Origin: a virus
Lineage: Duplodnaviria; Caudoviricetes
Virus record (IMG/VR): IMGVR_UViG_3300033183_000158
Coordinates: 1 to 63,577 of that record
Length of the DNA: 63,577 nt
Reading direction: 5' to 3' (one strand)
In this document: positions 3,001 to 36,179 of the stretch, piece by piece
Layout of the letters: each line of letters starts with the position of its first letter
Position numbering within the stretch: position 1 is the stretch's first letter
Notes under the pieces: generated by a model
Databases searched by the model: none
Told to the model about the DNA's origin: nothing
Seen by the model: the letters and a program-made list of their open reading frames with translations, nothing else
Position numbers and translations under genes: made by a program

Positions 3001-6000
3001 ATTGCATCTGTACAAGAAATGATGGACCGTATTTACGAATTTGCAAACAGTGCAGATCCAACATTCATGGCTTTATACAAGAAGCTAACAATTGGAGATG
3101 GTGCTGCAAACCTTCGTAGTGCATTCTACACACACTTTGCAAAACAACGCCCTACAGTTTTGATGGCTGTGTTTGAAGACGGTGTTATTAAAATGATTCC
3201 TGTTAACAGAAACAACAGCGAGTTTTTGATTAGAGATAAGTTTATTAGTCAAGCTTCTGCACACAGATCTGAGAACAACCTTAACCCTGGTCAGCAAAAA
3301 GCTAAGATTGTAGAGCTACGTAAGCCTTTGCGTAAAGCAGAAAACTTAACTAATGAGGAGTTTGCTAAGCGTTACTCTCAAGTATTAGGTTCTATGGGCA
3401 TGTCGTTAGTAGAAGGCGGCGTAGACGTTGTAGAAAAAGCAATTGCTCGCGAGCTAAATAAAGGCACCCTTGACAAACAAGAGTTAAAGACTAAGCTTGG
3501 ATACATTATAGAAGCATATGTAGCAGATAACATTGAGAATGAGCGTAAGAACTTAACAGACTTTGGTCGTTCTATTCGTTACTACAAGTCAGAAGCCATT
3601 CAAAATGTAATGCAAAACGTAGAAGGTAAGAACCTCTACGGGGTTACACAGTCTAATCACATTGCTCGTGTGTTAGACATGCTTAAAGATCCTGCAAAAG
3701 AAGCACAGGCAAGACAAATTCTTGCAGAGATGCTTAAAGATCCTCGAGTACGTCACAGTAACTACATGAGACTTATTGTTAAGTACGGTGTAGTTAATGA
3801 TAAAAACGAATTAGTTGAAGCTCAGGCGTCTGTAGAACCTTTAATGGAAAATGGGTTACCTATTATTAATAGAGAAGGTTTAGAAAAAATAAACTATTCT
3901 CTTCTTGATGGTCTTAAGACAGATAAAGATGGGGTTCGCTACGGCGACATGAATGAGGTAGAGTTTGTTGCTCTTAGTGTAGCAGGATACTTACGTGGTG
4001 GTCAAGATCTTAAAGATGCAGGAGAGCGCAGCGATGTGATTACTACACCAGCTCTTACACCATCAGATAAAGGAACTCTTTATCTAATGAATACACCTAG
4101 ATGGGATCGCCAAGATGTTCGTAGAAATTTCCACGACGGTTCTGGTGCAGAGCTATCTACGGTATTAATATCTAGAGCCCTGCACGGTGAGCTTCAGGCA
4201 ATGCGTCAGGAAGGTCGTCGTCTATTTGGGGATAACATTGATGGTCCTCTTACTGAAGACATGCTAATTCCTGGACAGGCGCTGCAAACTTACTATGATA
4301 CAGACGGTAATGGTAATGTAGTTGTAGACGGTAAAGTTGTTGGTAATGGCTTTAAGTCTTCTTTGCTATCAGGCATTGACATGGCTGCTCTTACTGAAGA
4401 AGAGCGCAAAACTATTCAGACTTTGATCCAGCCTAATGGCATTCCTATGGGAGGCTTTGGATCTTTAGTTCCTGCCGTAGCGCGTATTATTAAAAAATAC
4501 ACTGTACAACAAGAAGCTGATCGCATTGAAAAGCTTATTCTACAAGCGGCAGAAAAGTCTCCAGAGTTTAAAATGCAAGTCAATGCGCAGCCAGGTAAAA
4601 GCTTGGAAGATCGTGCACGTCGTATTGCTTTAGGAGATAAGAACAATATTGGAATGGCTTTGCACAACATGTTGCATAACTATGAAATGCAAACCCTGTT
4701 CTACGGTACAGAAGGAGAATACAAAAATGATGTAGACCACGGTAAACGTGCTGCGTCTCCGTGGACTCCAGGTATTGCATTAGATACTACTCAGTTCTCA
4801 AGCCCTACATATAGAGTGGCAACAATGTCTGACATCAAAGTAACTTCTGCGTCGTACCAAGCAATGGAAGATCAGCTTACTGCAGACATTCTAGATGCTA
4901 AGCACAAAGGTAAAGCTGAGAAAACTGCTAAAGGAGCTGCTACAAAAGCGGGTAAAGAAGCACGTAAAGAAGCACGTGAATTGCTAAAAGGGTACAGAAA
5001 CATTGAAAGTACTGATGCCCAAGGGTACATGACCATTGATAGATTCCAAGAGATTATGAGAGCTCGTGGATTAGGATCTAAGTATGACCCGTTAATAGAG
5101 AAAGTTAAAGCAGGTAAAAAACTTACGCCGCGTGAGCTTAAGTATTTCTTAGACCCTGTAAAACCTTTCTACTATAGCCGTTCTTATGATCCTCGTTTAG
5201 GGCGTATGAGCTCTAATCTTATCAAGCTTTCTTCTTTGCCTTTAATTCCTCAACTAACAAGAGGTACAGAGCTAGATAAGCTGCGTCTCTGGATGGAGAA
5301 TAAAGATTCTGGTGTAAAAGCAGGACCTAACAGAGTTGATGAAGTTGTATACCAAACTGCTCACAAGGTAGGTAGTTACGAAGTGTCTACTCCTCACTCT
5401 GTAGACGCTGATGGTAATGTTACATTTGATCCTAAGTCAATGCTTGAGGCAGGTATTAGAGAGTTGCCTCACGAAGGATATACTATCCAGCTTGACAATC
5501 CTGAGCACTTAGTAGATGCTAAAGCTAAGGTAGGTTCACAGTTAGCAAAACTTATTATTGAAGGGCTAGATCCTTCAGCAACATACGGTACGTTTGGTAG
5601 CGCTGATTCATTAATCAATAACTACCAGTCTACTATTGCAGAGCTTGTTCAAATTGCACATGATAAACTTATTGAAGATATAGGTGCAGTTGTAAATGAA
5701 GACGGCTCGATGGAGTTTACTGAGAAGAGTCTTGAAAAACTTGGAAGCATTATTCAGGATGAGCTTGGTCGTAGAAACGCCACAGAAGTTCTTAAGCAAG
5801 GATTGCAGGTTACTCCTGATGGTAAGAGATTTGTTGTACCAGCATTCTTCTCGGGTGCTGCTAGTAAGGTAGAATCTCTAATGCTTTCTCTCTACACTCA
5901 GCGTGTAGTAAACATTAAAGTTCCTGGTGGTACAGCAGTACAGGCATCTAGTTCTTTGATGGTAGGTAAAGATCGCCCAAGACTATCTGCGAAGCTTAAA

Positions 6001-9000
6001 CCTGATGGTGGTATCGACTACTACGAGGTAATGCTTCCTGCATATATGAAAGAGCAGATGACGGACAGTAAAGGTAGAGTGCTACCGATTGACCAGATTC
6101 CAGAAGAAGCTCTTGAGATTATTGGTTACCGTATTCCTACAGAGGGTAAAAACTCTATGGCTCCTATGAAAGTTGTAGGATTCCTTCCTCCAGAGTACGG
6201 AGGGACTATTGCTGTGCCTGATGAGTTTATTGTGCAAATGGGATCTGACTTTGATATTGATAAGTTATTCTTGCAGATGCGCAACATTCCAAAGAAAGAT
6301 GCAGGCAACCAGCCTATGGAATTAACTCGTGAGCAAGAGTTGCAAAACAATCTCTTTGACATGATTCATACAGTCTTAAGACATCCTTCTCACTTTAGAG
6401 ATGTGATAAGCCCTCAAGGGTTTGAAGGTCTTAAAGAGACTGCTAGCAAAATTGCTCAGCTACGCGGTAAGAGTGAAAACGCTAGACTTAATACTCTATT
6501 GTTCTCTACTCAAAATGAATTCCGCAACCGTAACGCCATTGGTAGTAGCATGATTGGTATTGCTGCTAACTTTAATGTCTTTATGGCTGTTGCTCAGAAC
6601 ACTGATATGGTGTTAGCAGATGGTATTATGATTGAGCATGTTGTTACTCCAGAGCTAAAAGCTGCTTATCCAAACCAGGTAAGTGCTAATGCTAAGGTTG
6701 GTAGCACTGTAAGAATTCGCCATACTAATATTGGTAAGAATGACGCAGGGACTTATGTCAATGCAGAAGGCAAGCTAATCTCTGCAGAGATGAAGCAGTT
6801 CATTGCGGCTACCGTAGATAATGCTAAAGATCCAATCTTTGATAAGTTTAACGGAAAGGCATACACCTTACCTACAATTCTTACTATGGTTTCTGTGGGT
6901 GTACCTACAGAGACTGCGCTTATGTTCGCAGCACAGCCTATTATTATAGAAGCTGCTACTGCATACGATAATAATCGTTCTGTATTTGGTACAGGATCTA
7001 CTACAGAATTTAATGAGGTTAAAGGAAACTACATCAGAGAAATTCTGAAACTAATTCCAAGCCAGCGCAATCTAAAACCTGAAGAAAAAATTGCAGATTG
7101 GAACACAATCCCAGATGTAATTGCTAAGCTACAGCAGCAAGGAGAAATTACTTCTGAGCCTAATACAAGTAACAAGTTGTTGCGTAGAGGGATTGAAGTA
7201 GATCCTGCAAGCTTAGAAGGAGAGCAAAAGCTTAACTACTTGGTGCAACAGTTACATGTATTGCAAGAGTTCTCAGAAACTCGTAAGAGTGCTATGGCAG
7301 CACAAGATAGTGTTAAGTTGTACAAAACTGATGTTACAAGTGCTGGACCTTCTACAAGTAGATCTCATGAGTTAGATTACATTATGAGGTCTATGGATGC
7401 AGATCCTAAGATTTACATTGATAATGTTCCTGCGCATGTTGCTATCTACCCTGAACGAGCTCGTCGTCTTGAAAGTGAAGGTACGCTGCAAGGACAGTAC
7501 ACTGCTACGGGAGAAAAAATATTTGATGTACCAGAGCAAAGTGCTTACCCGATCCTAGAGTCTTACTATGAAAATGTATCAGTACGCTCTAGAGAAATGC
7601 TTAAGCACTTCTTTATCTCTGAAACTACAGGTGTACTTGCATTTACAGACAAGGCAATGCAGGTATTTAATAACGGACGCTGGGATGAGAAGGTTGCAAA
7701 CAAAGTAAAACGTTTGGTAAACCAACAAGCTCTTTCTAAAGTTCCTGCACTACAAGATCTAGATGCTTCTATTATGTTGGGTATAAACCGTATCCCAGCA
7801 AATGGTCAGGCATGGACTGAAAAAGAGATAATGAATGGTGAAGCTCCTGTTGCTGTTGTTTTACGATACGCACAACAGAAATACCCAGACCTGGCAAATA
7901 ATCCTTACCACATTTTAAATAAGCTAAAGCCTGAGTTTAACAAGAAGACTGTAGAGTCTAACTTAGGTATGCGTCTTATCAGTTTTGAAAACATCTCAGA
8001 TTCTGTAATTGATGAAGCACTTACGGAATCGTTAGAAGAAATGTTGTTTGGTAATGATCCTTTGTTGAAGCTACTTGCTGAGCAGTTAGTTAAGTATAAC
8101 TTCTTGACCAAGGGTATGGCATTCCAAAGAGATTCTTTCGCTAAGTTGTTAAGCCCTGATATCCTGGAAAGCATGAACATTCCAGATCAGTTGTACATTG
8201 AAATGAACAATTTACAGGGGTCTATGCCGCAACTAACGTTAGATCAATATGCTAGTGTTAACTACCGAGACTTTGCTAAACCTTTTGCACTTAATAAAGA
8301 TGAGTGGCAAGATGGTAAAGACGCGGGTGCTGATGGTGGGTTTGTTGTAAGTGCTTCAAAATCTCGTAGGTTAGGACCTTATGTACTAAGAACGGGTAAT
8401 GGTAGTCTTATGAACCCTGAGTACTACGATGCAGACTCTAGCGCTATTTTATACAAGCGTGTTACTGATGGTAGTGTAGAAGTTGATGAAGGATCAGTTG
8501 CTTATGTTCCAATTCAAAAACGTGGTATTCGTGGTAAGCTTGTAGAGCTTGATGGTTCTTCTGCAATACATCCTACTGTAGGTAAAAGCTTATCTAAGAT
8601 CTCGTTTGGTGAGACTGAGGCTACTGCTACTACAGAAGAAAAAGTAGACATGTTGCAGGCAAACTTTGCTGCAGCTGGTATCCAGGTAGTTGTTCGCACC
8701 GATGAAACAATGTCTGAAAACGCAAGTGTTAAAACTGAAGGAGGAAAATCTCTGATAACCCTTAATCCAAATCAAGTATTTGGTGATACCGTTATTCACG
8801 AGTTTGGTCACATCTATGTAGATCTTCTTGGTGTAGATAATCCATTGGTTGCTCAAGGTATCGCACAGTTAAAAGGCACACAACTTTGGAAAGATGTTGC
8901 AGCTCGTTATCCAGAACTGTCTGGAGACGCACTTGCAAAAGAAGTTCTTGTTACTGCTATAGGTAGAGAGGGATCTAAACTGTTTAACGAACAGCGTAGT

Positions 9001-11997
9001 CAGAACAAATGGAAAGTTTGGTTGAATAAATTCTTCCGTGCTATTGGTAAGTTGTTTGGTGTAGAGCCTAACGCTGCTCGAATTCTAGCTGCTGAGATGC
9101 TTAGTGGTCAGATGCAGAGAGACTTTAGAGGCACACTTTCTTCTGAAACGCAGTATCAAAAAGGCGAGGATGCTACGCTTCCTGAAATGTTGGCACAAAA
9201 ACGCCTGCAATTAGAGCGTTTGATTAAACAATACGGTTCTGAAAACCTTCCAGAACTTGCAAAGCTTGCAACTAAATGGAATGAGCAGAGCACAATTGAA
9301 AATCTTACGCTCATGGATGCCCAGGTAAAACGTTACTTAGATAGTCTAGACAAATACTTGGCTAAGATGGATGCGTTTATGGCAGATCCTGAAAACAGGA
9401 CTGACGAAAACCTAAATGCAATGTTCCAAACGTTGTATAACTATAGCACGGCATTGGCAGCGTTTACAGACTTTACTGATATTCCTGCTAAAGGGTTAAA
9501 AGGTGAGCTGAAAAGCACAGTCAAAAAACTTAATAAGCGTGGAGCCCGCGTACGCCAGGCAATTAATCGTATTAGTGAGTTCTCTCAAGAGCAATTTGCA
9601 GAAAACTTAGGAGAGTTGTCTACTAACCCTGAGATCCAGGCAGACTTTATGAAGATGTTTAACCCTACGGGTATGCATCTATTCGATGAGTCTGGTACAC
9701 AGTTGCTTCTTGATTCTTTGGCAGATACCAATGTGTCGTTCATTTCTCTATTGATGAAAGACTTTAAGATCAACAGAGCTCAAGGAGAAGAAGAAGCCCA
9801 GGAAGAGTTGATTAAGTGGCAAGAGCTCATGGAAGAAATGGATGCTGCAGGTGTTACTATAGAATCTCTATACAGAGGTAATACACCTAGCCCACAGTTT
9901 ATCTTGCCTACAATTAAAAAGAGAATTAAAAATGCTGCAGGGATAACTCAGATTGTTGAGGTTCCTAATCCCCAGTGGCAAGCTCTTAGTGATAAACAAA
10001 AAGACTTTAGTAAACGCATTCGTCAGACGCTTTCTAGAATGACCGCTCATACTAATTCTAAAATGTTTGAGTATGGTTATATTCCTGCAGTTCCTCTTAA
10101 TGAGAAAGACTACTGGGAAGAAATCAAGAAGACGCGTCAAAAGATGATTGATCGCTACGAGAAGTTTAAAAACAAGAAAGTAGGAGAAGAAGGCGTAGAA
10201 GATGAATACTCTAGTGTTATTGTAGACTCTGCAGGTAACGTAGTTGAAATGTTACACATGCCATATATGAGCATGCTAAATCAACTAGAGTTGCCGGCAT
10301 TGAAACAAGTTCCTGAAGGTGCTACTCCTGAAGAGATCAAAGCTATCGGTGAAGAAAACAAAGCAATCTATGCTGAGAGAGCTAAGATTGAAGCTGAGAA
10401 TAAAAAACGCCACGGCGAAGCTCTTGATACTGACTTGCGCAACACGATGGAGCGATTCATCTACCAGGCAGTACGTCACAAGTACAAGAAAAAGATCGAG
10501 GGTAAGATGCTTCTAGCTCGTGAGCAGCTACGCCAAATGGATATTGTTGAAGCTCCTAACAAAGTTGATAGACTGAAACAAACGTTTGCGTCTGAGGACA
10601 AAAAAGGAGAAGAACAAAACCGCCCTACTATTAAAGGTGAGAACTCTAATATCTTTAAACACTACGATAAGTGGTTGACAATGGTATTCTATGATCACTT
10701 TGAGGCAGATGAAAGTGAAACCTGGAAAAAGATTTCTGATGGTCTTAGAGATTACTCTTCTGTAGTAGGTATTGGTTTAAACGTGTTCTCGGCTATTAAC
10801 AACAAGACTTACGGAGAAATGCAAACTGCTATTGAAGCAGCAGCAGGTGAGTTCTTTACAGTTAAAAACTGGTTGAATGCTAAAAAAGAATACAACGCTA
10901 ACATACTAAACATCTACGCAGATCGTGATAGTGGTAAATCTGACAACAAAATTGTAGCACTTATTAAGCGCTTCGATATTTTGCAGACACAAGACGAGCT
11001 TTCTGGTAGAGAGTACAGCAATCCTGTAATGAAGAAGTTGATGTGGGCTAAGAACGCAATGTATGCAATGCAGCATGCGGGTGAACACAGCATGCAAAAC
11101 CAAGTTCTTCTTGCAATGTTGGATAAAGAGAAGGTAATGCTCAACGGTGAAGAGATATCATTAAAAGATGCTCTTGAAGTAGAGAACGGACGTATTGTAA
11201 TTAAGAAAGGTGCGACTACTAAAGATGGTAAACCTGTAGATTCTAAATACCTGGCAAGCTTTAAGAACAAAGTAATCTCTGTTAATCAATACTTACATGG
11301 TATTTATAACAAAGAAGATGCTGGTACGCTACAACACTACGCCCTGGGTAGATTGATTATCCAGTTCCGTAAGTGGGCTCGTCCAGGATGGAATAAACGC
11401 TTTGGGGCTAAGTTTGGTCAATCTAGTTGGAATGAAACACGCGAACGCCTAGATGAGGGTAGTTATATTACCGGTGCTAAGTTTGCTAAAGAACTATTCC
11501 GAGGTGCTCTTAACATGGACTTCAATGCTAAACTTCACTACCAGTCTTTGACTGAAGGTGAGAAAGCAAACCTCAGAAGATTTGGTATGGAGATCGCAAT
11601 GATGGCGTTAGTTGGAGTACTTGCTATGGCTGCTGCGGGGGCTGCAGAAGACGATGACGATAGCAAAGCACTAGCACTCTCTGCTTACATGCTTGACCGT
11701 AGTAGAACAGAATTGATGACTTATATTCCAATCTATGGTTGGTTCAATGAAGGTAAGAAATTGATGAACTCTCCAGTAGCATCGTTCAGACAAGTAGAAT
11801 CTCTAAGTAAGATCTTGTTACATACAATGACATATCCATTCTTGTCTAAAGAAGACCGCTTCTACCAAGGTGGTATGTACAGAGGAGAAAATAAACTAGG
11901 TGTTTGGTTCAAACAGATGTTGCCGGGGGTTGCTATTGCACAACGCTGGAAGTTCATCGAAAGACAAACAGCTTACTACAAACTCTACGGATTCTAA
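1..11997 (+). CDS. Giant virion RNA polymerase polyprotein (crAss/phi14:2 gp66-like), 5'-truncated by the window
   Basis: The frame is open from base 1, 130 codons before the ORF-track ATG at 391. GSDFDIDK catalytic motif at 6241-6264, preceded by YRIPTEG; STDAQGY near 5010; zincin motifs YHEGFH (~1972) and IHEFGH (~8794); hydrophobic helix near the C-terminus. Confidence 0.92.
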   Translation, partial: ESVPGTPFAVKRPVTETVEAASTANLSEEDLLAYEEQVKHIKKEIGRKRGALKRAKRPETIERLNNEIAALESKLETVLTQGKAQPTIADPELNVDATPEEQVEQEAENNANDTVEPIELAQKVENLELDMYSFGVTLNSKLVLEDGKVVGVKEPLTAEETKVLEAMYGLEVGDDLFIRPTSEAYNGYGVFTKDGVMIGEMYTPAIARRRYNAALKKLNEATNPEQRAKLELDLLKEDARVERAEAMQSLFDQGITEITTVVKASTAGAVLFGNKERPLSEALSKESFAKHGIAYGETTSGAAKSAVSGVSVEQSDIVKGQLYVFVEGVTGLIAVPVDSPTVKEAGLLDQLEADLIALAAHVTSTDGAQLSGTPEYDAIIARIADYLPVTGSKGIRVVRQTNRGKTFVNLKLPIQGAEMEIVLIDANGNSNFTPGEENHFKEQAIKIQEEGRTFTIPFTQVMNLLGDKLTDVNTQKLKNSDPETRAKYLAQIGQRMTTNLESFTDANGKKYHVSPKTVGNQYGASIQHDAVSHNLKPTLQQKAERVNAVAPDEVREKVKRNKPKERRVKRGKKTSKNKTGRDAMDDALGLSLKVDGDNINDGKTEDLDAAEAWWRKAFPNVPFIRVEGLINNGGELAYGLFANASVTLSNLALPGTVYHEGFHTAMHLYLTEEERSKIYSEARAELSKLSPEEFKEAMRVARVSGVSNVSELTDLQVEEYVAEKFRAFMIVGESEYTPKTRIGRWFKKLKDLIKMFLSNRKHTDRLFQNIKAGKFNYKPTPQMIAHANTMSANLKALPEMTTREINESVNIITRLVPGAIQDIQDNAEEYGIKPGDNISEWVGAVLYDYLQENLVDRGIGNIENIVKVLNNFDDTDLSPGILSRVMHAFKLRYGVDLANATLNDLNRKNVEQIDALESDQEIDNADAMDGRIERNWDDSFLFHNPKDSVSQDVRNTIQSLPKIDRFEGDKLYASKDNFFGIRQFVEFDAVYPYLEANLAGIASVQEMMDRIYEFANSADPTFMALYKKLTIGDGAANLRSAFYTHFAKQRPTVLMAVFEDGVIKMIPVNRNNSEFLIRDKFISQASAHRSENNLNPGQQKAKIVELRKPLRKAENLTNEEFAKRYSQVLGSMGMSLVEGGVDVVEKAIARELNKGTLDKQELKTKLGYIIEAYVADNIENERKNLTDFGRSIRYYKSEAIQNVMQNVEGKNLYGVTQSNHIARVLDMLKDPAKEAQARQILAEMLKDPRVRHSNYMRLIVKYGVVNDKNELVEAQASVEPLMENGLPIINREGLEKINYSLLDGLKTDKDGVRYGDMNEVEFVALSVAGYLRGGQDLKDAGERSDVITTPALTPSDKGTLYLMNTPRWDRQDVRRNFHDGSGAELSTVLISRALHGELQAMRQEGRRLFGDNIDGPLTEDMLIPGQALQTYYDTDGNGNVVVDGKVVGNGFKSSLLSGIDMAALTEEERKTIQTLIQPNGIPMGGFGSLVPAVARIIKKYTVQQEADRIEKLILQAAEKSPEFKMQVNAQPGKSLEDRARRIALGDKNNIGMALHNMLHNYEMQTLFYGTEGEYKNDVDHGKRAASPWTPGIALDTTQFSSPTYRVATMSDIKVTSASYQAMEDQLTADILDAKHKGKAEKTAKGAATKAGKEARKEARELLKGYRNIESTDAQGYMTIDRFQEIMRARGLGSKYDPLIEKVKAGKKLTPRELKYFLDPVKPFYYSRSYDPRLGRMSSNLIKLSSLPLIPQLTRGTELDKLRLWMENKDSGVKAGPNRVDEVVYQTAHKVGSYEVSTPHSVDADGNVTFDPKSMLEAGIRELPHEGYTIQLDNPEHLVDAKAKVGSQLAKLIIEGLDPSATYGTFGSADSLINNYQSTIAELVQIAHDKLIEDIGAVVNEDGSMEFTEKSLEKLGSIIQDELGRRNATEVLKQGLQVTPDGKRFVVPAFFSGAASKVESLMLSLYTQRVVNIKVPGGTAVQASSSLMVGKDRPRLSAKLKPDGGIDYYEVMLPAYMKEQMTDSKGRVLPIDQIPEEALEIIGYRIPTEGKNSMAPMKVVGFLPPEYGGTIAVPDEFIVQMGSDFDIDKLFLQMRNIPKKDAGNQPMELTREQELQNNLFDMIHTVLRHPSHFRDVISPQGFEGLKETASKIAQLRGKSENARLNTLLFSTQNEFRNRNAIGSSMIGIAANFNVFMAVAQNTDMVLADGIMIEHVVTPELKAAYPNQVSANAKVGSTVRIRHTNIGKNDAGTYVNAEGKLISAEMKQFIAATVDNAKDPIFDKFNGKAYTLPTILTMVSVGVPTETALMFAAQPIIIEAATAYDNNRSVFGTGSTTEFNEVKGNYIREILKLIPSQRNLKPEEKIADWNTIPDVIAKLQQQGEITSEPNTSNKLLRRGIEVDPASLEGEQKLNYLVQQLHVLQEFSETRKSAMAAQDSVKLYKTDVTSAGPSTSRSHELDYIMRSMDADPKIYIDNVPAHVAIYPERARRLESEGTLQGQYTATGEKIFDVPEQSAYPILESYYENVSVRSREMLKHFFISETTGVLAFTDKAMQVFNNGRWDEKVANKVKRLVNQQALSKVPALQDLDASIMLGINRIPANGQAWTEKEIMNGEAPVAVVLRYAQQKYPDLANNPYHILNKLKPEFNKKTVESNLGMRLISFENISDSVIDEALTESLEEMLFGNDPLLKLLAEQLVKYNFLTKGMAFQRDSFAKLLSPDILESMNIPDQLYIEMNNLQGSMPQLTLDQYASVNYRDFAKPFALNKDEWQDGKDAGADGGFVVSASKSRRLGPYVLRTGNGSLMNPEYYDADSSAILYKRVTDGSVEVDEGSVAYVPIQKRGIRGKLVELDGSSAIHPTVGKSLSKISFGETEATATTEEKVDMLQANFAAAGIQVVVRTDETMSENASVKTEGGKSLITLNPNQVFGDTVIHEFGHIYVDLLGVDNPLVAQGIAQLKGTQLWKDVAARYPELSGDALAKEVLVTAIGREGSKLFNEQRSQNKWKVWLNKFFRAIGKLFGVEPNAARILAAEMLSGQMQRDFRGTLSSETQYQKGEDATLPEMLAQKRLQLERLIKQYGSENLPELAKLATKWNEQSTIENLTLMDAQVKRYLDSLDKYLAKMDAFMADPENRTDENLNAMFQTLYNYSTALAAFTDFTDIPAKGLKGELKSTVKKLNKRGARVRQAINRISEFSQEQFAENLGELSTNPEIQADFMKMFNPTGMHLFDESGTQLLLDSLADTNVSFISLLMKDFKINRAQGEEEAQEELIKWQELMEEMDAAGVTIESLYRGNTPSPQFILPTIKKRIKNAAGITQIVEVPNPQWQALSDKQKDFSKRIRQTLSRMTAHTNSKMFEYGYIPAVPLNEKDYWEEIKKTRQKMIDRYEKFKNKKVGEEGVEDEYSSVIVDSAGNVVEMLHMPYMSMLNQLELPALKQVPEGATPEEIKAIGEENKAIYAERAKIEAENKKRHGEALDTDLRNTMERFIYQAVRHKYKKKIEGKMLLAREQLRQMDIVEAPNKVDRLKQTFASEDKKGEEQNRPTIKGENSNIFKHYDKWLTMVFYDHFEADESETWKKISDGLRDYSSVVGIGLNVFSAINNKTYGEMQTAIEAAAGEFFTVKNWLNAKKEYNANILNIYADRDSGKSDNKIVALIKRFDILQTQDELSGREYSNPVMKKLMWAKNAMYAMQHAGEHSMQNQVLLAMLDKEKVMLNGEEISLKDALEVENGRIVIKKGATTKDGKPVDSKYLASFKNKVISVNQYLHGIYNKEDAGTLQHYALGRLIIQFRKWARPGWNKRFGAKFGQSSWNETRERLDEGSYITGAKFAKELFRGALNMDFNAKLHYQSLTEGEKANLRRFGMEIAMMALVGVLAMAAAGAAEDDDDSKALALSAYMLDRSRTELMTYIPIYGWFNEGKKLMNSPVASFRQVESLSKILLHTMTYPFLSKEDRFYQGGMYRGENKLGVWFKQMLPGVAIAQRWKFIERQTAYYKLYGF

Positions 11998-17354: not shown

Positions 17355-17382
17355 TATAGGGGATCCCGAAGGACCCCCTATA
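17355..17382 (-). terminator. 12-bp UUCG hairpin after rIIB (terminator or stabiliser)
   Basis: TATAGGGGGTCC-TTCG-GGATCCCCTATA on the - strand; no clear U-tract. Confidence 0.55.
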
Positions 17383-29958: not shown

Positions 29959-30040
29959 GATAGTAAGACTACGATGACTTTGATCTTGCATTGCTCATCT
30001 CCTTGCGGACGATATCTCGTTGCTATCGTAGTTTACTATC
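29959..30040 (-). ncRNA. Intergenic long stem with GNRA-capped inner hairpin
   Basis: GATAGTAA and ACTACGAT pair with ATCGTAGT and TTACTATC (16 bp, one bulge); inner TCC-GCAA-GGA on the - strand. Confidence 0.5.
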
Positions 30041-30045
30041 GGTTA

Positions 30046-30537
30046 TTAAAATGCAGCGTCCTCTTCTACTGGGTCGAGGATAGTTTTCTGTACTGCAGTT
30101 ACACGCTCCTCTACGGGAAGCGTTGCTGACTTGTTATCGTCAAGCTTGTGACCTGCAGATTGGAACGCTGCACGAACCTGAGATTCAAAGCTAGGCTCGT
30201 TAGTCATACCCAACACAACAGTTGTGTAAGTTGATACAGGACGGTCATCGATTTCATACTCCTCTACTGAGCGAGTAACGATGGCACCAGGAACTTTCTC
30301 GCCTTCAACTGCATCATACATGTAATGCATCTTGTCGTCGAGGTAAGACTCCTCGTATCGAGTAATGCTTGACGTGCGCGCTGGCATGCGTACTAACATT
30401 ACTTCTCCTGTTGTCACATCAACAACCTCTTTGTGTTGTGGTGATTGAAATGTAACTAGCTTGTAGTTACGTCCGTTTTTATCTTGACGTTGCTCACTTA
30501 CTTTCACTACTGTCAAGAGTTCACTAGAATTTGCCAT
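30046..30537 (-). CDS. Hypothetical protein, possible second SSB-like protein
   Basis: Beta-rich look, DKNGRNYK segment, acidic-aromatic tail EEDAAF. Confidence 0.55.
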   Translation of the reverse strand: MANSSELLTVVKVSEQRQDKNGRNYKLVTFQSPQHKEVVDVTTGEVMLVRMPARTSSITRYEESYLDDKMHYMYDAVEGEKVPGAIVTRSVEEYEIDDRPVSTYTTVVLGMTNEPSFESQVRAAFQSAGHKLDDNKSATLPVEERVTAVQKTILDPVEEDAAF

Positions 30538-30647
30538 GGTTAATTTATTATTTAGGCGTTAATTAAAAGATTGGGTTGTTTTTTACGCGTACAACCCGGT
30601 GCAATACTGCACCAAAAACGCATCACATATCTCATCTTGAGATATAC

Positions 30648-30851
30648 TTACACTCTTATCTCACCCAACGTGAGCTCTGGCATATTCTCCCACAGAGTAT
30701 CGATAGCATCTTCATAACCAAGAGCATACGCTTCTTTGATATGACTGTGCCATGTCTTTGGATACATCTGTAAGAGCAGGGATAATCGGGAATCACGAGT
30801 AGTTACTTGGTATCTACCCTTCTCGATACGTTTATTCTTCTTCTGACTCAT
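30648..30851 (-). CDS. Hypothetical protein
   Basis: MSQKKNK...; the longer ORF-track start would overlap the Cys-rich ORF. Confidence 0.55.
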   Translation of the reverse strand: MSQKKNKRIEKGRYQVTTRDSRLSLLLQMYPKTWHSHIKEAYALGYEDAIDTLWENMPELTLGEIRV

Positions 30852-30987
30852 CACACTTACACGATTCTGATTCACACTCGTAACAACATTCACAAGTCCA
30901 ATCATCATCGTTGTACTCGTGACATACAGGACATCTTGCAGCCTCATCATCCTGATAATCTGCAAGTTCACGGTCGAGATAGTACAT
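30832..30987 (-). CDS. Acidic Cys-rich miniprotein (51 aa)
   Basis: MYYLDRELADYQDDEAARCPVCHEYNDDDWTCECCYECESESCKCDESEEE; TAATG coupling with the upstream gene. Confidence 0.65.
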   Translation of the reverse strand: MYYLDRELADYQDDEAARCPVCHEYNDDDWTCECCYECESESCKCDESEEE

Positions 30988-31247
30988 TAGATATGTCCAT
31001 TAACCTCTGACCAACTCATCGGGTACACTGTGACATCAGCAGCATCAAGCTTGCGTCTGTTCACAAAGTCTTGACCTTTGTCTCGTGCAGTATCATATGA
31101 ATGGAAGGCACCTACCTTTACGATAGTACCATCATCATAGTTCTGCACGATGGTCAAGAATACTACTGCGTCATCTTCATCAGGAATGTCTGCGGCAATA
31201 CTGTTGCGATTCATTTGCTCTATGAAGAGCTCTTTCATCTTTCCCAT
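30987..31247 (-). CDS. Hypothetical early protein
   Basis: MGKMKELFIE start; part of the operon chain. Confidence 0.65.
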   Translation of the reverse strand: MGKMKELFIEQMNRNSIAADIPDEDDAVVFLTIVQNYDDGTIVKVGAFHSYDTARDKGQDFVNRRKLDAADVTVYPMSWSEVNGHI

Positions 31248-31348
31248 CTTCTTCTTAGGTAATCAACTAATACGATAACTAACACAATACCGACACCAAT
31301 CAACTGACCGATGCCGTAGTACACTGAGTGAAGGAACAAACTACTCAT
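31235..31348 (-). CDS. Small single-pass membrane protein (37 aa)
   Basis: MSSLFLHSVYYGIGQLIGVGIVLVIVLVDYLRRRWER; overlaps both neighbours. Confidence 0.55.
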   Translation of the reverse strand: MSSLFLHSVYYGIGQLIGVGIVLVIVLVDYLRRRWER

Positions 31349-31577
31349 CTTTGAATAGCTTGTCCCACATACCAGAAGGTATGCCAGTGATTAATAACTC
31401 CCGCTGATCAGGAGTGAGGTCAGGGAAATTATCTTGGATATACCCTATACCTAGTTCGTGGTTCACTACACCAGCGTATGGTACAGTGAGTCTGTGCTTA
31501 TTGTCAAGCACATCGGTAACTTCGAGGACCACGGTCTGTGGCGCCTCTCCGTTACCAACAATTCTATAGTTGTTCAT
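31341..31577 (-). CDS. Hypothetical early protein
   Basis: IQDNFPDLTPDQRELLITGI-W segment resembles a recurrent small phage protein family. Confidence 0.65.
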   Translation of the reverse strand: MNNYRIVGNGEAPQTVVLEVTDVLDNKHRLTVPYAGVVNHELGIGYIQDNFPDLTPDQRELLITGIPSGMWDKLFKDE

Positions 31578-31581
31578 AGTA

Positions 31582-31980
31582 TTACTTAAATCTACGAGTG
31601 ATTACCCAATCGTCTTGTTCCCAAGAGATGTGGTGCTCATCATAACTGACAACAGTACGACAACCTACCTTGACTAGTTGATCATCGATGTAGGTAAGAG
31701 ACACATCACCTGTGCTTATCCACTCCCCATCGTTGAGGTAGTACCAATACACATCAGTAGAAGTGAAGACTAACTTCTCATTGTTCTGTTCGAACACAAG
31801 AGTCTCGTCTGGCTTCTCAATAATAGTCTCGTATACTTCGTACTCACCTAATAGTACAGTAGGCGAGTGGTCTTCTTTAGTACATGAACAAGTCACGACC
31901 ATGAAGAGGAGTAAGAAAGGGATTACTGCAGTACGCAGTATCCCCTTTGCAAATTCGTATGGTGTTGGATGCTGATTCAT
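31582..31980 (-). CDS. Bacteroidota-type lipoprotein (possibly lipocalin-like)
   Basis: Hydrophobic stretch followed by TCSC-TKED; beta-rich mature region. Confidence 0.6.
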   Translation of the reverse strand: MNQHPTPYEFAKGILRTAVIPFLLLFMVVTCSCTKEDHSPTVLLGEYEVYETIIEKPDETLVFEQNNEKLVFTSTDVYWYYLNDGEWISTGDVSLTYIDDQLVKVGCRTVVSYDEHHISWEQDDWVITRRFK

Positions 31981-31981
31981 A

Positions 31982-32263
31982 TTACAACAGATTTTTATTG
32001 TAATACTCACGCATCTTATCCTTACGGTCAGTGTATTCTAATGCAACGCCGATGAATGTACCGACAGTAGCAATGAATGACAACATAATTAAACCACTAT
32101 GATATAAGTGGCTGAACTCAGAGACAAACGTAGTCTCTCCTTCAAATCCAAACAGTAACGATAACACTAAGGCTAACATTGTGTGGATGCTCATCAATGT
32201 GACGAGGAACAATGCGATGAATGACAAGTAAGTCATCACGCGTGAGAAAATAAACTTCTTCAT
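31982..32263 (-). CDS. Two-helix membrane protein
   Basis: Two long hydrophobic segments. Confidence 0.65.
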   Translation of the reverse strand: MKKFIFSRVMTYLSFIALFLVTLMSIHTMLALVLSLLFGFEGETTFVSEFSHLYHSGLIMLSFIATVGTFIGVALEYTDRKDKMREYYNKNLL

Positions 32264-32318
32264 TGTTGGTGGTGTGCAGTGTTATTCTCTTGCACTCTTG
32301 AGTTTAGTTGGTAGTTAA

Positions 32319-32524
32319 TAGGAGGACTGGTTACCCTCTCTGTACCGTTTACCCGGTTGACGATGCATGTGGCTACATGCGATCTAGCTTCTCACATGCA
32401 CTAGCTAGAACGTAAGCGAAGGAAGGAGATGATCAGTCCCCTCCCTCCTAACACAACATAGTTCCAAGCAGAGCAGCGCTTGGTAATGAACCATCGTCCG
32501 ATACTAGAACTATGTTATGTGTTA
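32319..32524 (-). ncRNA. Structured intergenic RNA candidate
   Basis: 17-bp bulged stem at 32449-32524, then a multibranch element closed by TAGGAGG/CCTCCTA containing three hairpins. Confidence 0.45.
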
Positions 32525-32710
32525 AAGTTTAGTTGTAGTTTGCTCAAATCTAGAAAGACCTTCACGCTGTACAACTTCATATACTTTATCAATGGCGTCT
32601 ACAACACCAAGTATGTCTACTAACTCCACATTCTCTGGACTTAGTTTGCGTAACAACGCATTGCTCTCGGCAACGAAGTTGTATAATTCGAGATATAATT
32701 TGTCTGTCAT
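32522..32710 (-). CDS. Hypothetical early protein
   Basis: 62-aa ORF on the early strand. Confidence 0.5.
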   Translation of the reverse strand: MTDKLYLELYNFVAESNALLRKLSPENVELVDILGVVDAIDKVYEVVQREGLSRFEQTTTKL

Positions 32711-32937
32711 TGTAAATAATGATTGGTTTATACGATGTAATTACATGCACACTTTACACACATGTGCACTGGGTTAGTCTATATAAATAGTATGTTCTGT
32801 AAGTTATAGGCTAACGAAAAGAGGCAATTCACTGGGCATATAGCCTGGTCAACGCTCATGCGTTCTTCTGTACCTCCACTATTAGACGGGGTATGGTGTA
32901 AGGTTTAGACGCAGTATGATGTAAGGTTGAGTGTGGT

Positions 32938-32969
32938 ACAAAGCAAAGGGAACGCCCGAAGACGCTCCC
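32938..32969 (-). terminator. Terminator after the first early gene
   Basis: GGGAGCGTC-TTCG-GGCGTTCCC-TTTGCTT on the - strand. Confidence 0.75.
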
Positions 32970-32977
32970 GATTACCC

Positions 32978-33229
32978 CTAACTACGAGCAAACGTAAACC
33001 ACACGAAGGACTTACCATCCTCAGTGATACGCTCCTCAGCCTCGATGTGGAAACCATCAGGCACTGGGAACTGAGTACCCACCTCCGGTACTGGTTGACC
33101 AGCGTCGAGCAATAGGTTGCCCGAACCATCGGCTGAAACAAACGGCGTGCCCTCAATCGGAGTTGACAATGAGCACAACGCAGACTTTTCGCTTTTAGAC
33201 AGAGCGACTACTGTAAGAACCTGAGCCAT
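32978..33229 (-). CDS. First gene of the leftward (early) block, hypothetical
   Basis: 83-aa ORF with a UUCG leader hairpin (33245-33260) and its own terminator. Confidence 0.7.
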   Translation of the reverse strand: MAQVLTVVALSKSEKSALCSLSTPIEGTPFVSADGSGNLLLDAGQPVPEVGTQFPVPDGFHIEAEERITEDGKSFVWFTFARS

Positions 33230-33460
33230 AAGACAAAGATTTGTGAGACTCGAAAGCCTCTGGTTAATGGCACCGGGGTATCCGATGCTCCGTTATCAGT
33301 CGGGGTCGTCGGTGTAAGGTGGTGCCCGAATTCACACCCCTGTCTAATTTTTTTTGGAAAATTTTTTAGCTGTATGTAGGCTTACGCCCTAGCACCAGAG
33401 TGCGTATAGAGGAGAAAAAGGAGATAAGTTGTTGAGTGTGTGGGAGATGACTAAAAAGTT

Positions 33461-33621
33461 AGTGTACGTGGGATACACTTTAAGTGTACGTGGGGTACAC
33501 TAAGTCTGATTTTGAAAGAATGTAAGAAATTAAAACTGTAAAAGCAAAAAGAAAATGAAGTGTTTTATAGTTAGTGTATTTTTTTGTATACTTGTAGTGT
33601 ATGTGGCGTACACTTTAAGTG
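33461..33621. repeat. Three AGTGTA-N7-TACACT palindromes (origin or operator candidate)
   Basis: Copies at 33461-33479, 33483-33501 and 33596-33614; at the strand switch, upstream of the repL-like gene. Confidence 0.8.
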
Positions 33622-33790
33622 CCAAAAAGACGAACTATGTGGACTAGACAACATGTGGCATTGGGGTATAGCGCTGAGACTAAAGAAACTAGAGTGCTTA
33701 CTATCTATGTAGATGTGCAAGCAAATTATATGATTGAGATCCAGCAGGACAGTGAGGGTGAGATCATAAAGTGTGAAGTAGATGCAGTAA

Positions 33791-34228
33791 ATGAAGAAAG
33801 AGGTTAACATTACATACATCAAGGGGTGGGCTCTCTCTGACGGGATCAAGCGACCGATCCATGGGTATACCAAGGTAGGTACGTTATTTACCAAGCACTA
33901 CCACAATGCAATTTATTTATTGGCGGGATTAAACTCTAGTTCTAGGGATCTGTTAGAATTTTTGATTCAGAGGATGGACGGTAACAATGTGGTGTTGTCG
34001 AATGCTAAGATCCGTGAAGATTTTATCTTGCTTATAGAAAGGGCAACTAATGGGGACGTCACCTACACACACAATACAGTGAAGAAGGCGTTCCAGACGT
34101 TGGTCAAGAAGAAGTTGATCATACAGAGAGAGCAGCGCGGTAGTTACACAGTCAATCCGGAGTACTTTTTTAAGAAGGACGAGCGTGAGCGAATACAACA
34201 AATAAAATTAATACTAGAAAACAAGTAA
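33791..34228 (+). CDS. repL: RepL-like winged-helix replication/regulatory protein
   Basis: TVKKAFQTLVKKKLI and RGSYTVNPEYFFK signature. Confidence 0.75.
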   Translation: MKKEVNITYIKGWALSDGIKRPIHGYTKVGTLFTKHYHNAIYLLAGLNSSSRDLLEFLIQRMDGNNVVLSNAKIREDFILLIERATNGDVTYTHNTVKKAFQTLVKKKLIIQREQRGSYTVNPEYFFKKDERERIQQIKLILENK

Positions 34229-34231
34229 GCT

Positions 34232-34510
34232 ATGGGTTACATTCCATTGGGTGCGACATTGGTTATCAAGGCACCAAAGATTAGCGAGAAGACTGAGGCA
34301 GGAATCCTGAAGTCTGAGGCAATGATTAAAGAAGAGAAGATGAGCTGGGACGGCACAGTAGATGTTATTGCTGTGGGTCCTATGTGTAAGCACATCTCTG
34401 CGGGTATGAAGGTGTTGTTGCAGACGAATGCAATCATGCACCCTGTACTTATTGATGGTGACGAGTATTTGCAGGTAGAAGAATACTCAGTGCTAGGGTA
34501 CTACAATTAA
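34232..34510 (+). CDS. groES: Co-chaperonin GroES
   Basis: PLGATLVI, EKTEAGIL mobile loop, VIAVGP, YLQVEEYSVLG. Confidence 0.85.
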   Translation: MGYIPLGATLVIKAPKISEKTEAGILKSEAMIKEEKMSWDGTVDVIAVGPMCKHISAGMKVLLQTNAIMHPVLIDGDEYLQVEEYSVLGYYN

Positions 34511-34568
34511 AAAGTGTATACAAGGGGTGTGACTCGTTTTTGAAGATGTAAAACGTATACATTTTCTA

Positions 34569-34576
34569 TATATTTG
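34569..34576 (+). promoter_or_regulatory. Bacteroidota -7 promoter element TATATTTG
   Basis: Matches TAnnTTTG, 27 nt before the ATG at 34604; -33 box unclear. Confidence 0.5.
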
Positions 34577-34603
34577 GTTGTATATCAATTTAAGTAAAAT
34601 AAT

Positions 34604-34912
34604 ATGCAAGCAGAAAAAGAAGGCTTTGTATACAGACTATACGACTTCAAAAGCGAGGAGCACTACCAGACCGTCAAGTTTACTGAGAAGAATACTGACG
34701 GCACTTTTAATCCTGGAACAACCAATGAAGAAGTGGTACAAATGTTGATTGACCGCTTCTACTACCTACAGAAGAACAACTGGTCGGCAGAAAATGCAAC
34801 GGTCATTATCCTGTTGAAGAATGTACGTCAGTTGTTGGCGAAACGTTTAAGTAGAAAAATCGAGAAGGTTAAGAAGTATAATGAACAGAGTAGTTCAAAT
34901 ACCAACAAATAG
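34604..34912 (+). CDS. Tad1-like anti-defence sponge protein
   Basis: TVKF...GTTNEEVVQMLIDRF-YLQ-WSAENA-LLAKR matches the Tad1 helix-hairpin pattern. Confidence 0.62.
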   Translation: MQAEKEGFVYRLYDFKSEEHYQTVKFTEKNTDGTFNPGTTNEEVVQMLIDRFYYLQKNNWSAENATVIILLKNVRQLLAKRLSRKIEKVKKYNEQSSSNTNK

Positions 34913-35219
34913 TAGAAACCTAGTAAGAGATTATGTACTAGCAGTAAACGGCATCCTGAAACTCACGGATCGTGAGGTTGAGGTGGTTGCTGCTTTTATA
35001 CGTTACGATAAAGAGAATGCAGCTACTCCCGCCGCACGTAAATATGTGGCAGAAGAGCTTGAGATGAAATCTGTTGCGGTGTTGAACAACTTTGTCAAGG
35101 CTTTAAAAGACAAGGGCGTGATACTTCCTGTCCCCGATCAAAGGAACAGGTACACCTATCACCCTATTATTAAGGACATAAACAAAGATGTATCAATACA
35201 AATACGGTTTGCTACCTGA
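34881..35219 (+). CDS. Winged-helix DNA-binding protein
   Basis: LTDREVEV, VAEELEM, NFVKALKDKGVI. Confidence 0.65.
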   Translation: MNRVVQIPTNSRNLVRDYVLAVNGILKLTDREVEVVAAFIRYDKENAATPAARKYVAEELEMKSVAVLNNFVKALKDKGVILPVPDQRNRYTYHPIIKDINKDVSIQIRFAT

Positions 35220-35400
35220 GGAATACATAATTGAATACCTATTTACGGTGGACGAGACTAGAGAGATGTTTCAATTTCTCAAGCATCAGGAGAATGCCTT
35301 TTACGAAGCAAATTTGATCTATAACCACGAAATAGAACACAACGAAGAGTCGGAGTGGACGCTCAGATTCTTTATATCAACAAAAGATGGGGAAACGTAA
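35188..35400 (+). CDS. Hypothetical protein
   Basis: Overlapping operon chain. Confidence 0.45.
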   Translation: MYQYKYGLLPEEYIIEYLFTVDETREMFQFLKHQENAFYEANLIYNHEIEHNEESEWTLRFFISTKDGET

Positions 35401-35638
35401 CGAGGTTAAACAAGAGATCTACAGGGAAATAGCCAAAGAGACTGGAGGTACAATCCAAGAGATAGAGAAATGTGTGGAAGCGCAGTTCAGTTTTATCGAG
35501 AAGATCATACGTAGGGGAGAGTTCGATACTGTACGTATGCCATACCTTGGAAAGTTCACAGTCAAGCCAGGAAGAGTAAAAATGTTAAACAATAAGAATG
35601 CGATTATTCAGAGAAGAAAACTTTCAGGTGATAATTGA
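35387..35638 (+). CDS. HU/IHF-like protein
   Basis: IYREIAKE and VRMPYLGKFTVK; IHF homologues are usual in this crAss module. Confidence 0.75.
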   Translation: MGKRNEVKQEIYREIAKETGGTIQEIEKCVEAQFSFIEKIIRRGEFDTVRMPYLGKFTVKPGRVKMLNNKNAIIQRRKLSGDN

Positions 35639-36179
35639 CCCTGAGTTAAAGACCATTCCACAGTTTAAACGCATCATCACTAGAGATCGCGACAGAAAAA
35701 AGCGCGCAGCTTTTAAAGAGCTGGCGTATATCTACTTTGTCTACGATTATAAAAGCCCTTACTTTATATATCCAGAAGCCGAGCGCCGCACTAGAGTGCG
35801 CAAAGACTTAGATCTAGAGCCAGGCTGGATGGAAGACAGCGAGATGAAGCAAGCCATTGCTAAGTACGTCTCGTTCTTAGATACCCCTACTATTAAATCA
35901 CTGATTGCTATTCGTGAAGGGCTGTTGTCCTCTGCGAAGGTTATTGATGCACTACGAATGCGCATTGATGAGACGCTCGCTGATGCCATGGATGATGAGG
36001 CGGAGGATTCCGTGGACATCGGCAGCGTTGTAAAGAGTGTGACACAGCTTATAGAGCTGAGTGAGAAACTGCCAAAAGCCATAGACACAATATCTGACCT
36101 AGAAGATAAGGTTAAGAAAGAGCAATCTAACGATGCTCGTATAAAAGGTGGTGGAACTAAAGGTATGTTTGAGGACTAA
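35598..36179 (+). CDS. Pre-terminase protein (small terminase subunit candidate)
   Basis: ELAYIYFVYDYKSPY and a C-terminal RIKGG; lies upstream of terL. Confidence 0.55.
   Translation: MRLFREENFQVIIDPELKTIPQFKRIITRDRDRKKRAAFKELAYIYFVYDYKSPYFIYPEAERRTRVRKDLDLEPGWMEDSEMKQAIAKYVSFLDTPTIKSLIAIREGLLSSAKVIDALRMRIDETLADAMDDEAEDSVDIGSVVKSVTQLIELSEKLPKAIDTISDLEDKVKKEQSNDARIKGGGTKGMFED

Follow-up and report, generated by a model that had tools for sequence, protein, structure and literature searches.

Conserved sequence boxes at fixed spacing, rather than conserved hairpins, head the early genes of a marine crAss-like phage

Does the head of the leftward genes in a marine crAss-like phage carry hairpin promoters for a virion RNA polymerase (RNAP), of the kind used by coliphage N4, or is its conserved information held in the sequence itself? 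The locus lies in a 63.6-kb fragment of an uncultured virus record (IMG/VR IMGVR_UViG_3300033183_000158; hereafter the window, that is, the whole stretch of DNA analysed), which is rated 78% complete; DNA sequencing runs that contain parts of it carry aquatic or marine metagenome labels. The open reading frame (ORF) at 1-11997 has a sole match, 6VR4, the two-barrel virion RNAP gp66 of phage phi14:2 (E = 3e-33), which bears out the enzyme that the initial annotation had assigned to it. Leftward genes on the - strand, running from 33229 to 12147, encode a DNA polymerase, a helicase and rIIA/rIIB, with small unknown genes clustered at the 33229 end, and genes on the + strand from 33791 encode terminase, portal and capsid proteins. 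The region flagged in the initial annotation is the head of the leftward block and adjoins a divergent intergenic region (33230-33790); it had been placed ahead of the first early genes, and the leftward genes from 33229 are indeed the small genes that head the replication module. Its counterpart in phi14:2 belongs to the early class, and transcription of that counterpart, only moderately affected by rifampicin, is ascribed to gp66; the rightward genes of phi14:2 form the rifampicin-resistant early class (bioRxiv 10.1101/2020.03.07.982082; here and below, as given in the portion of that report available to us). The same portion defines only host-type middle promoters for phi14:2 and describes no shared upstream motif as detectable at the 5' ends of early transcripts (Drobysheva et al., bioRxiv 10.1101/2020.03.07.982082). 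Our literature searches found no paper defining a promoter for a crAss-type virion RNAP, and the word 'promoter' is absent from a 2023 Crassvirales review, in agreement with the initial annotation, which knew of none. A BLAST search of 30000-36000 against isolate phages gave no match, Rfam searches of 31500-34500 on both strands (E up to 10) gave two chance-level matches only, and a tRNA search of the window found none.

The conserved feature of this control region is primary sequence at fixed spacing, not hairpins. Directly upstream of the first leftward gene (gene 1) lies an element of about 80 nt that reads, on the + (template) strand, GGGG, 28 nt, GGGG, 16 nt, GGTGGTA and ATTCACA (Table 1). 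Relatives were collected by an IMG/VR terminase search, which gave 80 loci, and others were added by DNA-pattern scans and one more protein search (loci are denoted by L and a number). Among them, 23 distinct versions of the element can be aligned nearly gap-free: GGGG occupies columns 14-17 and again 42-45, GGTGGT columns 58-63 within (T/A)AGGTGGTA at columns 55-64, and ATTCACA-like bases lie near columns 70-76, followed by an A/T tract. The bases between the invariant GGGG runs vary freely, and the terminase identity of the source phages goes down to about 66-69%. Variants of boxes 3 and 4 include GGTGGTACCC.AATTCACA, GGTGGTATATGCATTCACA and GGGTGGTACTCGAA.GCATA. A search with the alignment profile returned one match in the window (33264-33343) and one each in 58 of 102 related loci, always on the + strand in every locus oriented by its terminase gene; the core pattern is also single-copy in three further records of 44-67 kb. 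The distance from the end of G box 1 to the first ATG, which our script measured in 16 of 28 de-duplicated early regions and gave for none of the remaining 12, is 23-70 nt in 13 of these 16; three have 106-232 nt. The A/T tract beside the element is kept in L004, L005, L013, L014, L087 and L073-type relatives.

The hairpins of the initial annotation are real as drawings on this sequence. All four of the stems that it described are present; GGCAC (33269-33273) and GTGCC (33322-33326) flank the hairpin at 33274-33292 as an outer stem, and a UUCG hairpin folding on the - (RNA) strand lies 13 nt away, close to the 14 nt or so that had been given. That such hairpins exist, and that gp66 prefers single-stranded templates (bioRxiv 10.1101/2020.03.07.982082), would suit structure-specific promoters on the template strand. 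The hairpin at 33274-33292 overlaps G box 1 and the C-rich box. It had been described as favoured on the + strand, and this is so with RNA parameters (-8.0 vs -1.6) but not with DNA parameters (-1.9 kcal/mol on + vs -1.8 kcal/mol on -), by which it is marginal as DNA. The window contains 76 hairpins of its class (8 bp, at most two G-T pairs, 3-5-nt loop), 40 of them on + and 36 on -, compared with 31.4 +/- 5.2 in 30 shuffles, and it is one of 12 class members with a 3-nt loop on the + strand. As single-stranded DNA (ssDNA), the + strand of 33262-33330 has a folding energy of -12.1 kcal/mol (z = -2.06; 11 of 200 shuffles do as well), which counts in favour of structure; its best fold leaves the flagged hairpin unused and instead pairs 33282-33292, the C-rich run of that hairpin, with the next G run at 33301-33312. 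The - strand RNA 33330-33230 is equally unusual (z = -2.38; 3 of 200 shuffles). The two stems ahead of the next gene (gene 2) are not above chance, the + strand of 32765-32855 having z = -0.40 and 63 of 200 shuffles as good. When the whole genome is scanned in 60-nt windows, 33261-33340 on + falls among the top 0.4-2.4% and 32821-32880 at the 4th to 8th percentile; the rank of 32761-32820 is the 9th percentile if RNA parameters are used and the 53rd if DNA parameters are used.

Relatives do not keep these stems. The close relatives that share gene 1 (L087, L094, L097, L103, L011 and L090) retain the sequence of 33274-33292, yet their substitutions disrupt the stem: pair T6.G14 becomes G.G in all six, pair C1-G19 becomes C.A in four of the six, and two-sided changes arise from one sequence only. 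Fixed-register pairing occupies 80.4% of cells in 7 close relatives (A1) compared with 76.8% in shuffles (57 of 500 as high), and 57.6% compared with 58.0% in the 23 homologues (A2; 319 of 500 as high). RNAalifold finds no consensus pairs in the + strand alignment of the 23 homologues, and over the segment from G box 1 to G box 2 the mean folding z-scores of individual sequences lie between -0.2 and -0.7 on either strand. In many homologues a C/T-rich run is available to pair with G box 1, with loops of 3 to 12 nt, and the four pairs between columns 14-17 and 27-30 each hold in 12-20 of the 23, both of which lean towards hairpins; stems anchored on the first G run are nevertheless no longer than in composition-matched interior shuffles (74 observed vs 86 +/- 7, P = 0.96). 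Ahead of gene 2, the stem at 32773-32815 keeps 5 of its 11 pairs in L097, L103 and L094, and in the stem at 32831-32849 one pair becomes a T.G wobble and another a C.C mismatch in the same three loci, which are near-identical there and count as one comparison. Variants in DNA runs X1 and X10, at 32790 and 32841 (loops) and at 32828 (between stems), spare the stems, and three variants are too few to weigh. Covariation is thus absent: substitutions break the stems without compensation, and pairing stays at shuffle level.

How does this compare with phages whose virion RNAP promoters are known? N4-type promoters present a 3-nt loop whose conserved purines, -10G and -11G, are contacted by the enzyme, and extrusion of their hairpins depends on supercoiling and single-stranded DNA-binding protein (SSB). 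In N4 the early promoters P1-P3, read by an injected, T7-like single-subunit virion RNAP, are three copies with conserved sequence from -17 to +1 and a GC-rich heptamer flanked by inverted repeats; the hairpin is kept by compensatory change, non-conserved stem bases being free as long as they pair (PMC4496689, from the available part of that source). The window resembles N4, as far as these sources go, in having an injected polymerase, signals at the head of the first-expressed genes and an enzyme whose homologue prefers single-stranded templates in vitro, and a small hairpin with a 3-nt loop can be drawn in both the window and phi14:2. The window enzyme matches the two-barrel gp66 rather than a T7-like enzyme; the stems are not kept, the conserved parts being G boxes spread over about 65 nt; the three proposed sites differ in arms, stem lengths and loop sizes (3, 21 and 5 nt) and share no sequence; and the hairpin at 33274-33292 has the loop C-C-G, whose central base is C. 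Unlike the N4 enzyme, gp66 efficiently transcribes M13 ssDNA with no promoter hairpin (bioRxiv 10.1101/2020.03.07.982082; PMC4496689, both in part). The initial annotation's proposal of structure-based, N4-like ssDNA promoters is therefore not sustained: an N4-like hairpin mechanism fails every defining feature testable here, and we consider it highly improbable that the template-strand hairpins are structure-specific promoters. The hairpins that had been flagged arise incidentally from G runs and C/T-rich runs, or else are part of the RNA leader.

Another parallel is Thermus phage P23-45, whose two-barrel virion RNAP is fused to the tape-measure protein and has AT-rich sequence promoters (bioRxiv 10.1101/2022.12.01.518664, in the part of that report available). 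Like the window, P23-45 has a two-barrel virion-carried enzyme, and its promoter is a primary sequence upstream of the earliest genes, common to relatives that carry the enzyme; its motif, again from that part of the report, is AT-rich, short and placed at 14 mapped start sites, whereas the window element spans about 80 nt, is rich in G on the template strand and occurs once, the core box alone being repeated.

The core box recurs in front of the next gene. Two tandem copies, R2 and R1, follow a GTACCAC motif ahead of gene 2, a third copy (R3) lies inside the element, and the three form repeat family D5 at 87% identity. The pattern CCCCG[AT]CT[AG]A occurs in the whole window only at R1 and R3. 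A profile search (E up to 10) detected no second full copy of the element at 32882-32945, where the core boxes alone match, and no core box copies were found before later leftward genes in the window, so that copies precede genes 1 and 2 only. The second site, comprising a UUCG-loop terminator, GTACCAC and the tandem pair, is conserved in L097, L103 and L094, and other clades carry a tandem pair of their own in the early region, 22 nt apart (L004, and the group of L073, L076, L050, L041 and L071); spacing across L097/L103, L004 and the L073 group is 22-23 nt, and in L004 and L073 the pairs likewise follow a UUCG terminator. A blind count of 7-mers over the 28 de-duplicated early regions placed CCTTACA (13 vs 2) and CAACCTA (12 vs 2) at the top, on the early-sense strand only. 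A further box, TATATAGAC, is found once per region in 12 of the 28 (other strand: 1) and is preceded by AT-rich bases; its usual place is about 55-80 nt upstream of the ATG of a conserved small gene of the gene 2 type. A CTTACAAT-like motif often lies about 40 nt beyond this box. Strongly conserved non-coding signals thus overlap the stretch that the initial annotation had put forward as candidate promoters ahead of the early genes, whereas the hairpin basis given for them does not stand.

Such boxes might instead be host RNA polymerase promoters, or operators bound by an early regulator of the phage, and not signals for the virion enzyme. Tandem boxes two helical turns apart resemble operators, the variation of box sequence between close relatives is what regulator-operator pairs display, and the TATATAGAC box is AT-rich like a -10 region. 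Promoters of the sigma-70 type, however, have -35 and -10 hexamers 16-18 nt apart, and a sigma-70-type scan gave no - strand site in 33230-33345 or 32711-32977 (it did not cover the Bacteroidota-type consensus); early transcription in phi14:2 is only moderately affected by rifampicin (bioRxiv 10.1101/2020.03.07.982082, available part). We judge operators or host promoters to be a very unlikely explanation.

A look-alike of the element is found in phi14:2 itself. The pattern GGGG-N23-25-GGGG-N6-12-TAGGT has one match in the 100,418-bp phi14:2 genome and none for the reversed control. The match (97998-98043, - strand) lies immediately before g111, the first gene to run rightward there, in a divergent gap of 358 nt, and contains a perfect GGGGA-TAC-TCCCC hairpin, which, standing at the equivalent place, is also a point that an N4-like mechanism could claim. 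No relatives of phi14:2, with which its copy could have been footprinted, were found among isolates or in IMG/VR. The TATATAGAC box was also sought in phi14:2, where 5 matches compared with 4 for the reversed control, and the two examined, inside g071 and g076, led us to take them as chance. Beyond the look-alike, the two phages have in common a homologous polymerase and an early replication module that diverges from the structural genes; they differ in that no common motif is reported at phi14:2 early 5' ends in the available part of that study (bioRxiv 10.1101/2020.03.07.982082).

What, then, could the element and boxes do? Early initiation signals are the best fit because of the conserved spacing, the single copy, the fixed orientation, the survival of cassette swaps (see below) and the presence of a core box before the next gene, and, since early transcription in phi14:2 is rifampicin-resistant (bioRxiv 10.1101/2020.03.07.982082, in part), the injected polymerase is their obvious reader. 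We tentatively favour, at somewhat less than even confidence, the reading that the element and boxes are sequence-read early promoter signals, probably for the virion RNAP. The region would then govern transcription of the first two leftward (early) units, with the injected polymerase encoded at 1-11997 as the most likely reader of element and boxes. Transcription would begin leftward of G box 1, at a distance of between a few bases and a few tens of bases, and each unit would consist of a short structured leader, a small gene and a UUCG-loop terminator. A broader version is more doubtful: the G-box element may be the promoter of the crAss-type two-barrel virion RNAP, common to a large marine clade and phi14:2, with its boxes read on opened or single-stranded template, in the first DNA to enter the cell, while the next cassette would have a weaker internal start in the repeated 23-nt core box.

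Several observations weigh against these promoter readings. The phi14:2 pattern was composed after the alignment had been seen, and the alignment profile itself has no match in phi14:2 at E up to 100. No G-box element was seen in crAss001 upstream of gp104, and the reported lack of a shared motif at phi14:2 early 5' ends also counts against a promoter. Box sequences differ between close relatives (the window and L004), which is odd for one conserved polymerase. The full element is single-copy, which would suit an origin, a packaging site or a genome-end signal equally. In favour of the promoter readings, by contrast, the sole contig of the one metatranscriptome run (262 nt, 32977-33238) covers gene 1 alone, stops short of the element and ends just inside two UUCG hairpins; at depth 4 it cannot show transcript ends and may reflect DNA carry-over. 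At most it hints that gene 1 forms a short separate unit and that the element may lie outside the transcript. The library data as a whole are contigs, so that starts, ends and coverage steps cannot be read from them, and a gap in cover at 33360-33490 in four runs is uninformative. Weighing against them again, in one clade a tRNA-Arg(tct) gene lies on the early-sense strand about 25 nt upstream of the element (L064 5630-5702, L073 932-1004, L050 3686-3758, L071 4394-4466 and L068 974-1046; it is absent from the window), so that in these five loci the element could be a transcribed RNA leader.

The same tRNA arrangement favours the element being transcribed generally as the leader of early mRNA, acting in stability, in translation control or in processing after an upstream tRNA, with 33270-33288 and 33245-33260 as RNA structures. 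The hairpin at 33270-33288 competes with the flagged one and is the best - strand fold in the window, L087, L097 and L011; the substitutions that break 33274-33292 fall in its loop or outside it, and it is better on the - strand and unchanged in five of six relatives, so that covariation is absent either way. The UUCG hairpin folds at -5.2 kcal/mol as - strand RNA compared with -0.7 on +, and L011 has a different hairpin, GAGGC/GCCTC, at the same place just before the ATG. The unusual folding of the - strand RNA noted above points the same way, as does the fact that the half of the element from G box 1 to G box 2 moves with the gene cassette, the window and L004 differing to the left of 33317. 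On the other side, the 23 homologues show no consensus structure (in the + strand alignment) and z-scores are weak on both strands, the invariant features are, in the RNA sense, C runs without a conserved partner, and the RNA contig ends at 33238, before the element, although this last is weak evidence. An RNA leader therefore appears decidedly unlikely to be what is conserved here. A + strand terminator formed by G box 2 and CACCCC before a T tract was also considered and rejected, as L073-type homologues lack the C run and the T tract lies 17 nt past the stem.

The early genes might, alternatively, merely start beside a genome-end, packaging or replication-origin signal. The element is strictly single-copy per genome fragment; an A/T tract and three conserved palindromic repeats adjoin it; the 145-aa protein encoded alongside matches RepL at borderline significance (E = 3e-4); and the early genes of crAss001 are located at a genome end. 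The contig ends, however, do not fall at one fixed position of the element, record G001, rated 100% complete, continues through the region, and core boxes recur ahead of gene 2, where an end or origin signal would not need them. Terminal-repeat records were absent among the eight large relatives queried, all of which are classed 'linear'. We consider a genome-end, packaging or origin signal unlikely. The palindromic repeats are near-palindromes, GTGTAYGTGGNRTACAC, with three copies in the divergent gap (33462-33478, 33484-33500 and 33597-33613; 0.11 expected by chance). Copies occur in L004, L005, L006 and L011, with near-matches in L087, and the L041/L073 group has tandem AAAGGTGACTGAG.TGTACCT repeats of its own in the corresponding position. 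These repeats may be iterons, or else operator sites, perhaps for the 145-aa protein (33791-34228; the borderline RepL match).

Early-gene cassettes are exchanged at this locus. The closest relative by terminase, L004 (98% identical), is homologous to the window only from 33317 rightwards and has different early genes; in its own sequence to the left of 33317, G box 1 is kept at the same spacing and G box 2 is not. DNA contigs also break or switch at 33315-33317. Cassettes are thus swapped between phages with 98% identical terminase (window 32970-33316, L004 5500-6880), with the left margin of the conserved block (33315-33317) and the terminator (32948-32969) as breakpoints. In one DNA contig 32969 is joined to 33315, the shorter side being only 22 letters.

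Neither gene 1, which has no PHROG or Pfam match, nor gene 2, for which no PHROG or Pfam family match was found, resembles a described family in those searches. The initial annotation was right about its 'first terminator', which occupies 32969-32948 on the - strand and has a UUCG loop; it folds at -13.9 kcal/mol as - strand RNA and is a GC-rich stem-loop followed by a T tract, and UUCG-loop terminators lie at the equivalent place in L004, L073, L087 and L097. Early-sense terminators repeatedly carry the UUCG (TTCG) tetraloop, at 32948-32969 and 17359-17378 in the window, 6143-6165 and 6398-6425 in L004, about 591-612 in L073 and about 310-340 in L087. After gene 2, a gap at 32264-32521 on the - strand (258 nt, no ORF) folds as RNA at -81.1 kcal/mol (z = -3.27; 0 of 200 shuffles) and includes a long hairpin at 32451-32520. 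The early region of phi14:2 has long, structured non-coding stretches with abundant early intergenic transcripts (bioRxiv 10.1101/2020.03.07.982082, available part), and by analogy 32264-32521 is possibly an early non-coding RNA.

Table 1 Positions in the window of the element, boxes, stems and first early genes
Feature	Position	Strand	Description
Conserved single-copy element	33262-33345	-	Head of leftward early genes, directly upstream of gene 1
G box 1 (element)	33275-33278	+ (template)	
C-rich box (element)	about 33288-33291	+ (template)	
G box 2 (element)	33302-33305	+ (template)	
TAAGGTGGTGCC (element)	33314-33325	+ (template)	
ATTCACA (element)	33330-33336	+ (template)	
A/T tract	33346-33367		T8 GG A4 T6; adjoins element on the side away from the early genes
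Box R3	33320-33296	-	Third box copy, with 2-nt insertion, inside element
Hairpin of the initial annotation	33274-33292	+	CGGGGTAT-CCG-ATGCTCCG; 8 pairs, 3-nt loop, two G-T pairs on + strand only
Alternative hairpin	33270-33288	-	GCACCGG/CCGATGC; 7 bp; one position a C.A mismatch on +, a G.U pair in - strand RNA
UUCG-loop hairpin	33245-33260	-	6 bp; 16 nt upstream of ATG at 33229; likely in 5' leader of gene 1
Gene 1	32978-33229	-	ORF, 83 aa; close relatives have unrelated genes in its place
Intrinsic terminator after gene 1	32940-32969	-	9-bp stem, UUCG loop, then T tract TTTGCTTTGT; from terminator scan
Second signal site	32882-32939	-	GTACCAC 32939-32933, then tandem 23-nt boxes R2 32927-32905 and R1 32904-32882
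7-bp stem of the initial annotation	32831-32849	+	7 pairs, two of them G-T; 5-nt loop
11-bp stem of the initial annotation	32773-32815	+	11 pairs, 21-nt loop; 5' arm overlaps TATATAGAC box
TATATAGAC box	32785-32777	-	About 65 nt before gene 2, inside the 11-bp stem
Gene 2	32522-32710	-	ORF, 62 aa, conserved across clades; 67% nucleotide match in L004

For regions of this kind, our results are a caution against N4-style hairpin readings, in that G runs yield hairpins from composition alone. The element also marks a boundary of early-gene cassette exchange between close relatives. crAss-like phages are a very abundant phage group, and the missing promoter of their virion RNAP becomes a matter for direct experiment, the look-alike of the element being located in phi14:2, a phage whose enzyme has been purified and crystallised.

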